A DNA stretch of 32,000 nt from Promethearchaeota archaeon. GTDB taxonomy: Archaea; Asgardarchaeota; Lokiarchaeia; Sigyniarchaeales; SOKP01. Position 1 is the stretch's first letter. Each line of letters begins with the position of its first letter. Location of the stretch: positions 150,001 to 182,000 of the forward strand of contig JAUWGH010000004.1 in assembly GCA_030606485.1 (NCBI GenBank). Reading direction: 5' to 3'. This document shows positions 110 through 6,897 of the stretch, in pieces. The translations under genes were made by a program, and so were the position numbers. A model generated the notes under the pieces. It was not told the origin of the DNA and ran no database searches. It was given only the letters and a program-made list of their open reading frames with translations.

Positions 110-180
110 GCGTTCGTTGTATAGAGGTAGTATTCAGGCCTTCCAAGCCTGTGGCCCGGGTTCGATTCCCGGCGGGCGCA
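110..180 (+). tRNA. tRNA-Gly(TCC), no intron, CCA not encoded
   Basis: Acceptor GCGTTCG/CGGGCGC; anticodon arm CAGGC-CT-TCC-AA-GCCTG; T-arm CCGGG-TTCGATT-CCCGG. Confidence 0.96.
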
Positions 181-493: not shown

Positions 494-1081
494 TTAGAGA
501 TCTACACCAAACTCCTTGAAGAGTTGTTGTATCTCTCGATCTGTAATGAAGCCTTTATGGTCAACGACTTCTTGGATTTTCTTTTGAACACCTTCATAAG
601 TATGTCCGACCGACAGATCAGACATCAGAGTTTTAATTTTATGTCTGAGTTCATTAACTTCATTTGATTTTTCATCTATAATTTCCTTTAATTTTTGTAC
701 TTCTCGATATCTTGATGATGCCTTTTCTTGCAATTCAGATGTATCTTCAGATTCTTTTTTTAATTGCTCTTCCATTTTAGAGATTTTTGCAATAGCATCA
801 TTTAAATCTGATTTAGCTGATTGTATCTCAGATTTAAGTTCAGTTATTTTCTTATCTGAATCATCATTTTCTTCTTTAAGAGCATTCAAACTATTTTCAG
901 TAGATGATAATTTTTCTTTGGTTTCATTTAAATCATTATTAGTTTTTTCTAAATTCATCTTAGCTGCAGAGAGTTGTTTTTCCAGATCATACGTTTTCTC
1001 TCGTAAATTTAATAACATATGACCTTCAATTTTATATTTTTTAGATGGACCCGATTCAATTTTAGGCCATTCAATACTCAT
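494..1081 (-). CDS. Coiled-coil protein, paralog 1 (195 aa), function unknown
   Basis: Heptad-rich rod. Shares the N-terminal W..IE..PSKK.K.EG..LL..R head and the C-terminal KGFITD.[ED]I tail with the two adjacent genes. Confidence 0.85.
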   Translation of the reverse strand: MSIEWPKIESGPSKKYKIEGHMLLNLREKTYDLEKQLSAAKMNLEKTNNDLNETKEKLSSTENSLNALKEENDDSDKKITELKSEIQSAKSDLNDAIAKISKMEEQLKKESEDTSELQEKASSRYREVQKLKEIIDEKSNEVNELRHKIKTLMSDLSVGHTYEGVQKKIQEVVDHKGFITDREIQQLFKEFGVDL

Positions 1082-1202
1082 TTGTAATTTCCCATCTTAA
1101 TATTATTATCAATTTTTTTATAAACGTTATAAAAATATATTAAACGAATTTCTATAAAAGATTAATGAAAAAAATCAAAATAAGATTTTTAAAATTAAAT
1201 TA

Positions 1203-2021
1203 TTAAAGCGATACGTTAAACTCACGAATTAACTTTTCAATTTCCTTGTCTGTAATGAAACCTTTCGAATCAACCACTTCCTGTATTCTGATCTGAACTT
1301 TCTGAAGCGTTTCTCCTACTGATAATTCGGACATTAATGTTTTAATTTTATGGTTAAGTTCATTTACCTCATTTGATTTCTCTTCTAATTCAGATTTTAC
1401 TGCATCTAAATCTCTCTCTTTAGATAATACTTTTTGCCCCAAATCAGATGATTTACCAAAAGTCGATTGTAATTGTTTTTCTAATTCTAAAGTTTTTAAT
1501 TTTGAAGCTTCAAGTTGCTTTTCCAAATCAAAATTTTTATTTCTTGTGTCATGTAATACTGATTTTGTTGATTCTAAGGTAGATTCAAGTTCAGTTGATT
1601 TATTAGTTAAAGCTTGTTTCTCTCCTTTAAATACATTTAAATTTTGTTCAAGAGAATCAATCTTTTCAGACGCTTCATTCAATTGCTGTCCTGTGGAAGA
1701 AAATTTTTCTTGAGTTTCACTTAGACTCTTCTCAGTAGAATTCAACTTTTCGTTTGTTTCATTTAAAATACTTTCAGTACTAACCAATTTTTCATTAACT
1801 TCATTTAAACTCTTTTCAGTTTTAGATAATTTTGTTTCAGTCTCTAATAATTTCGATTTAGTTTCATTTAATTCATCACTTGTTTTTTCTAAACCCGCTT
1901 TAGAAGATGTTAGCTGATTTTCTAAACTAGTTATTTTTTTTCGGAGATCCAAAAGCAAACTCCCATCAACTTTTCTTTTCTTACTTGGATTTGCTTCAAT
2001 ATCTGACCAATCGATGCTAAT
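1203..2021 (-). CDS. Coiled-coil protein, paralog 2 (~272 aa; probable ATT start, 21 codons upstream of the ORF-track start)
   Basis: The frame is open from 1958 up to ATT(2021-2019)-AGC-ATC-GAT-TGG = (I)SIDWSDIEANPSKKRKVDGSLLLDLRKK, collinear with the MSI.W heads of the paralogs. GAGGTG lies 7 nt upstream, and an in-frame TAA two codons upstream excludes an ATG start. Confidence 0.85.
   Translation of the reverse strand: MSIDWSDIEANPSKKRKVDGSLLLDLRKKITSLENQLTSSKAGLEKTSDELNETKSKLLETETKLSKTEKSLNEVNEKLVSTESILNETNEKLNSTEKSLSETQEKFSSTGQQLNEASEKIDSLEQNLNVFKGEKQALTNKSTELESTLESTKSVLHDTRNKNFDLEKQLEASKLKTLELEKQLQSTFGKSSDLGQKVLSKERDLDAVKSELEEKSNEVNELNHKIKTLMSELSVGETLQKVQIRIQEVVDSKGFITDKEIEKLIREFNVSL
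1641..1871 (-). repeat. 11 tandem degenerate heptads (consensus LxxTxxK/S) in paralog 2
   Basis: LNETKSK-LLETETK-LSKTEKS-LNEVNEK-LVSTESI-LNETNEK-LNSTEKS-LSETQEK-FSSTGQQ-LNEASEK-IDSLEQN. Confidence 0.85.
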
Positions 2022-2224
2022 TATTTAACACCTCTAAAATATTGAATTCTAAATTTATTTGTATATTTATCTTTCTATTTTACATTATTATAAATTTAAT
2101 TGTTAAATAAATCATTTTTTTTTATCTCTTTTAAGTATTAGCAATTATGTTTTATCTTAATTTCTCAATTAAATAGTAATAATTAAAAATTAAATAATAC
2201 CCTGAAAAATGAGGGATTTAATTA

Positions 2225-2253
2225 TAAGAGTTGAATAAATTAACCAACTCTTA
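2225..2253. terminator. 9-bp inverted repeat overlapping the stop codon of paralog 3 (possible terminator or processing hairpin)
   Basis: TAAGAGTTG-(11 nt)-CAACTCTTA. Function is not demonstrated. Confidence 0.3.
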
Positions 2254-3066
2254 GAATTCTTTGAAGAGGTCTTCAATATCCTTATCCGTAATAAAACCTT
2301 TCAATTCTGCAAGTTTTTGAATTTTTGCACACAGGCTTGGAAATTTATCTTCATCTGAAAGTTCAGTTTCAAGAGATTGAAGTTTATCGTTGAGTTCATT
2401 TATATTATTAATTTTTTCTTCTAATTCGCCTTTTAAATTTTCAATTTCCTTTTCCTTTGCCGAAATAATTCGCTCGGCATCAGTAACTAAATTGATTTTT
2501 CCTTCAAATTCCTTAAATCTTGTATTAGATTCAGATAATTGTTCTTCTAAATCTGAAATTTTAGTATTACTTTCTTTTAAAGTCAATTCAAGCTCAGAAA
2601 TTTTGTGAATTCCAATATCTTTATCATCCTTAATTGAATTTAATTCTTTTTCAAGAGAATTTATTTTCTCATTTGTTTCACTTAAATTTTGCTCAGTGGA
2701 AGCTAACCATTCATTAGTGGAAGCTAAATTTTTTTCTGTTAATTCATATTTCTCACTTATTTCCTTTAATTTCTTTTCTGTTGTTTCTAATTTCCCATTG
2801 GTTTCATTTAAACTCTCTTCTGTCGAAAATAATTTATCACTAGCCTCACTTAGATTCTTTTTACTTTCCGATAAGTTTTTCTCAGTCAATGATAATTTAT
2901 CCTTGGTTTCAGATAATTCACTTCTCATTTTATTTAATTCTGCATTATTTGAAGTCAACACTTTCTCTAAAGCATTTACCTTCTCTCGAAAATCTAATAA
3001 AATTCGACCCTCAACCTTGAGCTTTTTACTTGGATTGGTTTCAATTGAAACCCAATTAATACTCAT
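2251..3066 (-). CDS. Coiled-coil protein, paralog 3 (271 aa), function unknown
   Basis: MSINWVSIETNPSKKLKVEGRILLDFR head, long heptad rod, KGFITDKDIEDLFKEF tail. Confidence 0.85.
   Translation of the reverse strand: MSINWVSIETNPSKKLKVEGRILLDFREKVNALEKVLTSNNAELNKMRSELSETKDKLSLTEKNLSESKKNLSEASDKLFSTEESLNETNGKLETTEKKLKEISEKYELTEKNLASTNEWLASTEQNLSETNEKINSLEKELNSIKDDKDIGIHKISELELTLKESNTKISDLEEQLSESNTRFKEFEGKINLVTDAERIISAKEKEIENLKGELEEKINNINELNDKLQSLETELSDEDKFPSLCAKIQKLAELKGFITDKDIEDLFKEF
2644..2916 (-). repeat. 13 tandem degenerate heptads in paralog 3
   Basis: LSETKDK-LSLTEKN-LSESKKN-LSEASDK-LFSTEES-LNETNGK-LETTEKK-LKEISEK-YELTEKN-LASTNEW-LASTEQN-LSETNEK-INSLEKE. The DNA has an exact 12-nt repeat, AGTGGAAGCTAA, at 21-bp period. 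Confidence 0.85.
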
Positions 3067-3161: not shown

Positions 3162-3680
3162 CTAAGTTTTACTGGGATCAAACTTTATATTCATGTTTTT
3201 TTCAAATAACTCACATTTTATAGTTATTGTCGGTAGGTTTTTTATATCTATAACTATATCATGTTTTCCTTTACTTTCTTCAAGCTTTTTCATGTCTGCT
3301 TCCTTTAATTTCAATAATATTGTTAATTTATCTCCTACAGCAACAGTTTGTCCAGCAAGTGCACCATCCAAAATGGAATTGAGTGTATAATTGTTTCCCC
3401 TGAAATAAAAACTTACATTTTCTCTTAAATATTTCATATCATAGATTTCTAAAGGTTCCAAATCGATCATAATTTGTATCATACCAGATAAGTCAGTCGT
3501 TTCTAAGTTAAAACCACCTAAGTCAATCGTTTCAGGGACTGTAAATGGTAAAATCCAATTTATAGCTTGAATTTGAATAGAATCAGATAATCCATCATCA
3601 TTTGTATCTACTAAGTTAATGCATTCTTTCGGGGGAAAGATTTTTTCAATCAAATAGGGAGGAAAATCAATACCTTCCAT
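3162..3680 (-). CDS. Hypothetical protein (172 aa) with a Dx[DN]xDG-type loop
   Basis: ATG-started ORF with typical composition; contains VDTNDDGLSD. No family recognised. Confidence 0.7.
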   Translation of the reverse strand: MEGIDFPPYLIEKIFPPKECINLVDTNDDGLSDSIQIQAINWILPFTVPETIDLGGFNLETTDLSGMIQIMIDLEPLEIYDMKYLRENVSFYFRGNNYTLNSILDGALAGQTVAVGDKLTILLKLKEADMKKLEESKGKHDIVIDIKNLPTITIKCELFEKNMNIKFDPSKT

Positions 3681-3829: not shown

Positions 3830-4180
3830 TTAAGAAGATGAAACTATGCAATCATTAATTGTAGCGAAAATATCAGAGACATTTATCTGATCATCACATA
3901 ATATAATAATTAAGTGCTCCAAAATTTTCATACTCAAAATATAAAAGTTCTGACTATGAATGAGAGAAAAATCCGGTTTTTCAATCCCAATTTCAGAAGT
4001 TATATCCTCTGACGATTCATACGTCATAGACATATTAATAGCGATTTTTGCCGGATTAAATTCATCCTCATTGATATATGATCTTTCTACCACTCCATTT
4101 TCAGTAGTGATAAGAAGAAAATAAATCCCTGAAAATTTTTGAGTGATATTTTGTATAATTAGATCAAGATCTACACTCAT
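3830..4180 (-). CDS. Roadblock/LC7 domain protein
   Basis: 116 aa with the helix-strand-strand-helix-strand-strand-strand-helix pattern (LLITTENGVV..S; ..IA..MS..YE.SE.I..E.G; SLIHS.NFYIL). Confidence 0.72.
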   Translation of the reverse strand: MSVDLDLIIQNITQKFSGIYFLLITTENGVVERSYINEDEFNPAKIAINMSMTYESSEDITSEIGIEKPDFSLIHSQNFYILSMKILEHLIIILCDDQINVSDIFATINDCIVSSS

Positions 4181-4935: not shown

Positions 4936-5352
4936 TTATTCAAGTATTTTGGATCCAGAATATTTAAGCAGTTTTCCGAGAAGGAGCGCATCTGAAACGC
5001 TTCCAATTATATTTATTTTACCTGCCATATAAGAAATTGCAGGGTCAATTTTTTCTAAAATAAAATCAGTAAGTACTTTCTTAGTCATGAGAATAACTAC
5101 ATCGGGATCCGGATGGATTTTAAATTCATATTCTATCTTACCATTAGAAATATCCACCCAAAAATTAAAATCAACATCACTTAATTTAACTTGAAAAACT
5201 TTTTGAATATCTTTAATAAAATCTATAAAATCAGGATCTGTTTCCGAATATTCTTTATTTAAATTAAGGTAATCTTTAAAATCTCTATCCAAATTAATGT
5301 TTCCTTTTTTGATCTTCTCAATCAAATCTTTTTTGATTTTATTATCAACCAA
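4936..5352 (-). CDS. SCP2 sterol/lipid-binding domain protein
   Basis: DPDVVILMT...IDPAISYMAGKINIIGSVSDALLL is the typical SCP2 C-terminal signature. TTG start. Confidence 0.85.
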   Translation of the reverse strand: MVDNKIKKDLIEKIKKGNINLDRDFKDYLNLNKEYSETDPDFIDFIKDIQKVFQVKLSDVDFNFWVDISNGKIEYEFKIHPDPDVVILMTKKVLTDFILEKIDPAISYMAGKINIIGSVSDALLLGKLLKYSGSKILE

Positions 5353-6462: not shown

Positions 6463-6897
6463 CTATAATTCGTCAAATAGATCTTCTGCAATTTCCATGG
6501 AAAGTTCAATAATCTCTTGGAAAAACATGGCATCTTGAAGATTTCCCTCAACAGTTATATCTCCCGCCATGTATGCACTGGTGGCATCAACTTCCCCGAA
6601 GAGCATCCCAATTCCGATTTTTTTAACTGCACTAAACGTGAATGTGGGATCTTCAACCATACCTTCGCCCCAGGTCATCTTTCCCTCCTCTACCTTTAAC
6701 CAATACTTATTATCAGCGTCCGTTAAAACCATTTGTACTCGGACGGTCGCATCGGCAATTTCATCTTGAATTTCTTCGTTCTCATTTGCTAGATCTACGA
6801 AAAAATCCCAGACAACAGGGATAGCATCAACGTCAGCTGCGTCAGCACCGGCTTCCATAAGGCTCTTCAATTTTACAAGTTTTTCTTTATCAACCAT
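6463..6897 (-). CDS. SCP2 sterol/lipid-binding domain protein
   Basis: YWLKVEEGKMTWGEGMVEDPTFTF...GEVDATSAYMAGDITVEGNLQDAM is a classic SCP2 signature. Confidence 0.92.
   Translation of the reverse strand: MVDKEKLVKLKSLMEAGADAADVDAIPVVWDFFVDLANENEEIQDEIADATVRVQMVLTDADNKYWLKVEEGKMTWGEGMVEDPTFTFSAVKKIGIGMLFGEVDATSAYMAGDITVEGNLQDAMFFQEIIELSMEIAEDLFDEL

Follow-up and report, generated by a model that had tools for sequence, protein, structure and literature searches.

What do three coiled-coil genes encode that lie one behind another on a contig of an Asgard archaeon? The genes, here called paralogues A, B and C, occupy positions 494 to 3066 of a 32,000-nt window of Promethearchaeota archaeon contig JAUWGH010000004.1 (the window is the whole stretch of DNA that was analyzed, and coordinates given without a contig or locus name are positions in it). 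Among known organisms, Asgard archaea are those most closely related to eukaryotes, and proteins linked to their cytoskeleton are under close study. An earlier sequence-only reading had proposed that the trio forms co-assembling filaments or length-defined tethers, and its interpretation is partly supported here. We put at roughly 0.5 the probability that these class-restricted tandem paralogues are soluble coiled-coil spacers or adaptors, in which a constant head is combined with exchangeable tails. Oligomerization, a function as adaptors and a connection to the actin cytoskeleton, if any, are points that we infer only. The three genes are:

494..1081, minus strand: paralogue A, 195 amino acids (aa) from an ATG start, with head, 22-heptad rod and KGFITD tail.
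1203..2021, minus strand: paralogue B, 272 aa from an ATT at 2021-2019, with head, 33-heptad rod and KGFITD tail.
2251..3066, minus strand: paralogue C, 271 aa from an ATG, with head, rod of ~33 heptads and KGFITD tail ending in FKEF.

That these are three co-oriented paralogues is borne out by the three minus-strand open reading frames (ORFs), arranged head to tail, and by pairwise similarities far above chance (blastp E values of 8.6e-46 for A/B, 5.1e-57 for B/C and 2.9e-31 for A/C; 1.3e-42 for C against B in a genome search). The program-made ORF list begins B at an internal TTG at 1958 (1203-1958), and the head is thereby lost. The frame of B is open to 2024 and bounded by a TAA at 2027-2025, two codons upstream of the ATT. 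Extended in this way, B gains the head that A and C also have, and ATT 2021-2019 falls where their initiating ATG (Met) stands.

Alignment of the three paralogues (A1) reproduced the head and tail motifs quoted earlier, and conserved ends flanking a coiled-coil rod were found in all three proteins, which look cytoplasmic. In each, a head of 40 aa leads into a heptad rod without breaks, and the tail has the form helix-KGFITD-helix. The heptad register is continuous from L23, with Leu, Ile or Val at position a nearly to the tail in each protein. An AF2 model of A, for which 29 aligned relatives were used, has a mean predicted local distance difference test score (pLDDT) of 90.5 and consists of a short helix (residues 5-10), a loop, a single helix (20-176, pLDDT above 90), a GFIT turn and a final helix (181-190). 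At 0.15 nm per residue, the predicted rods of ~150-230 residues would measure ~23 nm in A and ~34 nm in B and C. The claim that signal peptides and transmembrane (TM) segments are absent also held, the highest 19-residue Kyte-Doolittle mean being 0.52. All three proteins are very hydrophilic and acidic (pI 4.8-5.4) and contain 0, 0 and 1 cysteines, respectively.

The head defines a real family, found only in the Lokiarchaeia-type class of Promethearchaeota. We define this SIDW-head coiled-coil family operationally: the head profile (A2/A3; columns W5, P12, G20, LL23-24, R27 and LE33-34) has to match at the very start of the protein, and a heptad rod has to follow. The trio scores 87-89.5 bits (E about 1e-24), with the heads placed as follows:

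956..1081, minus strand: head of A, residues 1-42, head profile E 8.1e-25.
1896..2021, minus strand: head of B, residues 1-42 with ATT as first codon, head profile E 4.1e-24.
2941..3066, minus strand: head of C, residues 1-42, head profile E 6.2e-25.

The head consensus x-S-I-D-W-x6-P-x7-G runs into LLDLRxK..LE; W5 and P12 are invariant, and I3, G20, L23, L24, R27, L33 and E34 are nearly so. Two further head-bearing genes, each with a rod and a zinc ribbon end, are present elsewhere in the window's own genome (G000), on its contigs C10 (C10:169075-169941) and C13 (C13:42090-42848). In the window's order (23 genera), a profile built from these five heads matches 40 of 41 genomes and finds 1-6 copies per matching genome. 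In an even sample of the phylum, 78 of 301 genomes carry the head and all belong to one class, every sampled genome of which is positive (68/68 in family f1, 7/7 in f2, 1/1 in f5 and 1/1 in f6); two closed single-contig genomes are among them. No other class among the 301 genomes gave a match. An exhaustive hidden Markov model (HMM) search with 49 heads against 1.84 billion representative proteins returned 204 matches at E<=1e-3. Here, the full head always stands at the very N-terminus of proteins of up to ~470 aa, and long matches (>650 aa) cover coiled-coil columns only. A head-only word search of 5.8e9 proteins came back empty, with a word index too coarse for a 45-aa query.

The suggestion of an undescribed Asgard family is upheld by these searches. 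The relatives are named only 'coiled-coil domain-containing protein [Promethearchaeota archaeon]' in their sources, and Atlas feature searches gave only unnamed Promethearchaeota or generic coiled-coil clusters. Neither the head nor the KGF tail belongs to a Pfam family, and Protein Data Bank (PDB) searches with both profiles gave designed or generic coiled coils only (E at or above 0.03). A match of head or tail to a characterized non-filament family would have counted against the earlier proposal, and none was found in Pfam, NCBIfam or PDB. For the whole proteins, Pfam returned generic coiled-coil matches, all below cut-off except that of C to the HOOK model (38.9 bits, cut-off 35; A scores 19.6), a model that itself describes a coiled-coil region.

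In contrast to the head, the C-terminal end is exchanged within the family. At least four endings recur on head-bearing proteins: a zinc ribbon, the KGF tail, RDYDFFKK..ERAERA and EGEEPxNFP. The trio carries the KGF form, with the consensus KGF(I/L)(S/T)D(K/R)E between two helices:

509..679, minus strand: rod end and KGF tail of A, tail profile A5 E 2.2e-21.
1215..1391, minus strand: rod end and KGF tail of B, tail profile A5 E 1.1e-20.
2251..2427, minus strand: rod end and KGF tail of C, stop codon included, tail profile A5 E 7.1e-20.

By profile search, the KGF tail occurs in 22 of 24 genomes of the window's own taxonomic family (f1) and in 0 of 16 genomes of the order's three other families (f2-f4). 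Within f1, KGF-type genes usually form tandem pairs, and a trio is seen in the window's genus. A maximum-likelihood tree places zinc-ribbon and KGF proteins in separate clades (100/100 support for both), and we propose that the zinc ribbon is the older, ancestral tail and the KGF module derived. In this tree the trio forms a clade of its own, with C sister to A and B. The tandem pairs of genomes G006, G011 and G026 are lineage-specific, and genera g2 and g11 share an older pair. These trio and pair clades indicate that tandem duplication has happened repeatedly; where the members of a pair are equally long, this mostly reflects their recent origin. KGF-like C-termini also turned up on two aldolase/synthase-like enzymes (G014 and G020; E 2e-4 to 5e-4) and were set aside as an ordinary helix-turn-helix ending rather than homology. 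The ORFs concerned (L046:1647-2858 and L047:370-1590; 403-406 aa) have a DRE-TIM (HMGL-type) look by eye and end in KxF(I)SEKELEDxxKK, which is probably convergent with the KGF tail.

This exchange of tails bears directly on whether the proteins form an intermediate-filament-like cytoskeleton, in which coiled-coil dimers or trimers would join head to tail and the three paralogues would co-assemble. The long unbroken rod between conserved ends, the retention of tandem paralogues in many genera and the presence of the family in every sampled genome of the class all fit such a structure. However, with the same head on unrelated tails, including the zinc ribbon, a shared head-tail polymerization interface becomes less likely and an adaptor more likely. 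Many of the tandem pairs, moreover, arose recently within one lineage and are not old obligate partners, and the relevant curated models are far from reached: Pfam Filament (PF00038) gives 17.5 bits for A and 22.9 for C against a cut-off of 40, with B unlisted, and the crescentin rod model Rod_CreS (PF19220) gives 17.8-22.2 bits against 100. A complex prediction with two copies of the head (residues 1-60) and two of the rod end and tail (130-195) scored 0.13 and 0.28, with the mark at 0.32, which weighs on neither side. We consider filament formation rather unlikely, and judge that the evidence favors a spacer or adaptor role.

A spacer or adaptor would be expected to combine a constant head with a stiff rod and exchangeable tails. 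In the mechanism that we envisage, parallel coiled-coil oligomers would serve as rigid, fixed-length spacers or adaptors. The constant head would dock on one common partner or cap the oligomer, the tail would select a second partner, and the addition or removal of heptad blocks would set the distance between the two ends.

The rods of the trio bear on the last of these steps. Runs of LxxT-type heptads begin at L51, and the counts of 2, 11 and 13 given earlier were right within about one (A 2-3, B 10-11, C 12-13). The runs, with weak DNA-level tandem repeats inside those of B and C, are located as follows:

890..931, minus strand: two Leu-a/Thr-d heptads of A, residues 51-64, read from heptad rows.
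1662..1871, minus strand: ~10 Leu-a/Thr-d heptads of B, residues 51-120, from heptad rows, with a 21-bp tandem repeat at 1814-1864 inside.
2665..2916, minus strand: ~12 Leu-a/Thr(Ser)-d heptads of C, residues 51-134, from heptad rows, with a 42-bp tandem repeat (x2.3) at 2727-2823.

A and B differ in length by exactly 77 aa, or 11 heptads, so that their heads and tails stay in phase within the heptad register; C has 3 additional residues. The idea of a heptad-tunable rod fits A and B, which differ by heptad blocks, but is not a strict rule of the family. Head-to-tail distances in 55 KGF-type proteins lie between 93 and 276 residues. Rod insertions or deletions were absent from contigs of four metagenome studies, in which the locus is near identical, so that length varies between paralogues and lineages and not within populations. 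A single low-depth joint of 2448 to 2923 in X8 was not trusted (depth 2.3). The further claim that a Leu-a/Thr-d core is typical of trimers was not established; judging by the reported GCN4 variants of Harbury, a tetramer would be at least as good a match for Leu at position a with a beta-branched residue at d.

For experimental work, the most promising lead comes from the zinc ribbon of the sister paralogues, a type of which an orthologue is present in a cultured Lokiarchaeon. The Zn-tail profile (A6) matches residues 283-332 of 7whg_G, the Lokiarchaeota gelsolin 2DGel (PDB 7WHG), with an E value of 2.2e-5. In the paper on that structure, this Zn domain is described as terminating Loki gelsolins as well as unrelated multi-domain proteins and as having a loop tyrosine that is conserved, and the authors suggest that it binds some cellular feature or complex (PMC9433394). 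Akil et al. (2022) did not consistently detect it beyond Loki (PMC9433394). In the window's genome, a Zn HMM places the domain at the end of seven ORFs: the two head proteins (paralogues P0004, with the domain at residues 240-289, and P0005), a gelsolin at C4:18186-19160 (Pfam Gelsolin 7e-27), a weak Ras-like ORF, a coiled coil without the head, and two small ORFs. Across the phylum sample, genomes of the head-bearing class hold 2-13 copies, mostly as a C-terminal module, and multi-copy C-terminal use of the Zn domain and the head family are found in the same class only. The domain shared with Loki gelsolin hints at a spacer or adaptor role near the cytoskeleton.

Several observations stand beside this comparison. 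Outside the class, the relative of the Zn domain is mostly one stand-alone gene of ~51 aa (MPCPKCGS...YAKK..C.DCGYEW), seen in many Asgard genomes (for example L052:241-393 in G076 and L053:240-395 in G067). The Ras-like member of the seven is a 333-aa ORF at C12:156566-157564 (contig C12 of G000, locus L049) with a weak Ras-family match (E 1e-3) ahead of its Zn-domain end, and by its sequence it may be a small GTPase-like protein with the gelsolin's C-terminal module. The Zn-type head-rod gene has a conserved divergent neighbor consisting of two tandem genes (L003:1854-3190 on contig C10; 18 of 21 Zn-type loci in relatives). Both neighbor proteins have hydrophobic, TM-like N-terminal segments when their translations are read by eye. 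The C-terminal part of the first is of the hexapeptide (left-handed beta-helix) type (Pfam Hexapep 31.9 bits, cut-off 27). For the second, an ORF that extends past the end of the locus, no Pfam match was obtained.

The zinc ribbon can also be read differently, as part of nucleic-acid or chromatin rods in which a TFIIS-type ribbon and the two-helix KGF tail would bind DNA or RNA and the rod would bridge or space them. Foldseek with the Zn-tail model returns generic TFIIS, RPB9 and eIF2-beta zinc ribbons (E at or above 0.16), and the stand-alone 51-aa relative passes Pfam Zn_ribbon_TFIIS (23.5 bits, cut-off 21). The KGF tail is reminiscent of the helix-extension-helix (HeH) and SAP motifs, but a Pfam scan of the tail that admitted matches up to E 10 finds neither of these nor another DNA-binding family. 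With proteins of pI about 5, and with the same Zn domain at the end of a gelsolin, which is not suggestive of nucleic-acid work, this function appears quite improbable to us.

A bolder extension of the gelsolin link is that the Loki Zn domain, or Lokiactin, has the invariant head as its ligand. Members of the Zn type would then form head-to-tail chains and bring in gelsolin together with other Zn-tagged proteins, and the KGF trio would act as length-defined caps or branches. We regard this as a long shot; if it were true, it would describe a Lokiarchaeia-specific coiled-coil network tied to the actin cytoskeleton.

A number of points weigh against the spacer or adaptor reading and its cytoskeletal tie. 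Heptad phasing of the head-to-tail distance is weak, with 22 of 55 sequences and 8 of 31 distinct lengths at one phase, and rod length in the family may drift rather than being tuned. We know of no partner for the head or for either tail. The flanks of KGF-type genes show no synteny beyond the genus, hence no functional clue comes from the neighborhood. A, B and C are not among the seven Zn HMM matches of their genome and are without the domain. The Zn domain of Loki2DGel, in turn, did not co-sediment with rabbit F-actin in vitro (PMC9433394), which leaves shared domain use alone as the tie to the cytoskeleton.

The family is nameless and without a studied member, yet it is present in every sampled Lokiarchaeia-type genome. 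As it shares a class-expanded C-terminal module with Loki gelsolin, its members are candidates both for the partner of that module and for structural elements observed in Asgard cells. Even if they prove to be generic spacers, a clean family definition replaces misleading 'SMC-like' labels, and start-site calls for family genes are corrected.

Among the starts concerned is that of B, which is preceded by a recognizable Shine-Dalgarno (SD) site:

2029..2034, minus strand: GAGGTG Shine-Dalgarno site of B, 7 nt before the ATT.

Among 51 relatives, the conserved first codon behind a GGTG-type SD is ATT in 17, ATA in 6, ATC in 1, ATG in 15, TTG in 3 and GTG in 3, and about half of the family genes in relatives begin at ATT or ATA. 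The pattern extends to the window's genome at large, where 18 ORFs after GGTGA are without a canonical start (ATA 9, ATT 7, ATC 2) compared with 35 that have ATG, and where the spacing from SD to start is 6 nt in nearly all GGTGA ORFs. The non-canonical sites include window 2019-2034, C10:169941 of G000 and 16 further sites. Genes resembling SDR, TetR, PfkB, EtfA and acyl-CoA ligase are among those with such starts, and their N-termini look complete for these families. From these sequence counts, ATT, ATA and ATC seem to be regular start codons behind the GGTGA SD in this genome. As such starts occur genome-wide, the ATT of B is read as a working start and not as decay.

The wider locus was also surveyed. 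Of the claim that each gene of the trio has its own SD- or TATA-like upstream sequence, the SD-like motif was found at each gene, but TATA-like strings carry no weight at 27% G+C. T-rich sequence lies downstream of each gene. Upstream of the trio on the same strand are a 172-aa ORF (3162-3680, minus strand) without a family match and a 116-aa ORF (3830-4180, minus strand) whose roadblock/LAMTOR3-like match is weak and falls below cut-off (MAPKK1_Int, E 1.4e-3). Neither gene is kept beside relatives of the trio, and no synteny was seen outside the genus. Small GTPase genes lie near 4 of 16 loci, roughly the chance level in GTPase-rich Asgard genomes by our informal estimate. Further along are two SCP2 sterol-carrier-like paralogues ~1 kb apart (4936-5352 and 6463-6897, both minus strand; Pfam SCP2 3e-9 and 9.6e-10), and ARAGORN calls a single tRNA in the window, Gly-TCC (110-180, plus strand).

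How, then, does the trio compare with known coiled-coil systems? SMC and Rad50 arms resemble it in heptad composition and are the usual label of automatic pipelines, as the earlier reading had anticipated. The curated matches are below threshold, with NCBIfam SMC/Rad50 models at 16-48 bits against cut-offs of 567-1087 and covering coiled-coil arms only (SMC models 29-48 bits, cut-offs 567-729). Unlike SMC and Rad50, the trio has no ATPase head, hinge or zinc hook and measures only 195-272 aa.

Tropomyosin shares with the trio an unbroken coiled coil of similar length with both ends conserved, and the Pfam Tropomyosin model (PF00261) is the top match for A and B and the second for C after HOOK. 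This raises the question of whether the trio might bind along the side of Lokiactin in tropomyosin fashion, with head-to-tail overlap and a rod length counted in actin subunits (77 aa corresponding to approximately two). At 195 and 272 aa, A and B come close in length to short and long tropomyosins, and the sister paralogues share a domain with gelsolin. Against this, the Pfam scores (34.6, 27.3 and 31.6 bits) remain below the gathering cut-off of 38.6 and are such as any coiled coil gives. A Fourier test of 92 family rods, moreover, found no robust period of 19.7 or 39 residues in charge or small residues; the trio alone shows a power of 2.15 (z 3.1) at 38-39 residues, a signal that is not significant once the number of tests is taken into account. 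Tropomyosin-like side binding is, in our estimation, very unlikely.

The bacterial coiled-coil-rich, intermediate-filament-like proteins crescentin, FilP and Scy and eukaryotic intermediate filaments are like the trio in their head-rod-tail layout, long heptad rod, cytoplasmic location and lack of a nucleotide-binding domain. The present family differs in having no sequence relation to these proteins, much shorter rods, a head far more conserved than the rod, and exchangeable tails. With respect to the Loki Zn-domain proteins, the trio itself has no Zn domain and 0-1 cysteines, and it carries an N-terminal coiled coil in place of gelsolin repeats. Its Zn-type head paralogues on contigs C10 and C13, by contrast, share with 2DGel the (CxxC)2 pattern (CPxC...CxxC), the loop tyrosine and the strictly C-terminal place of the domain.

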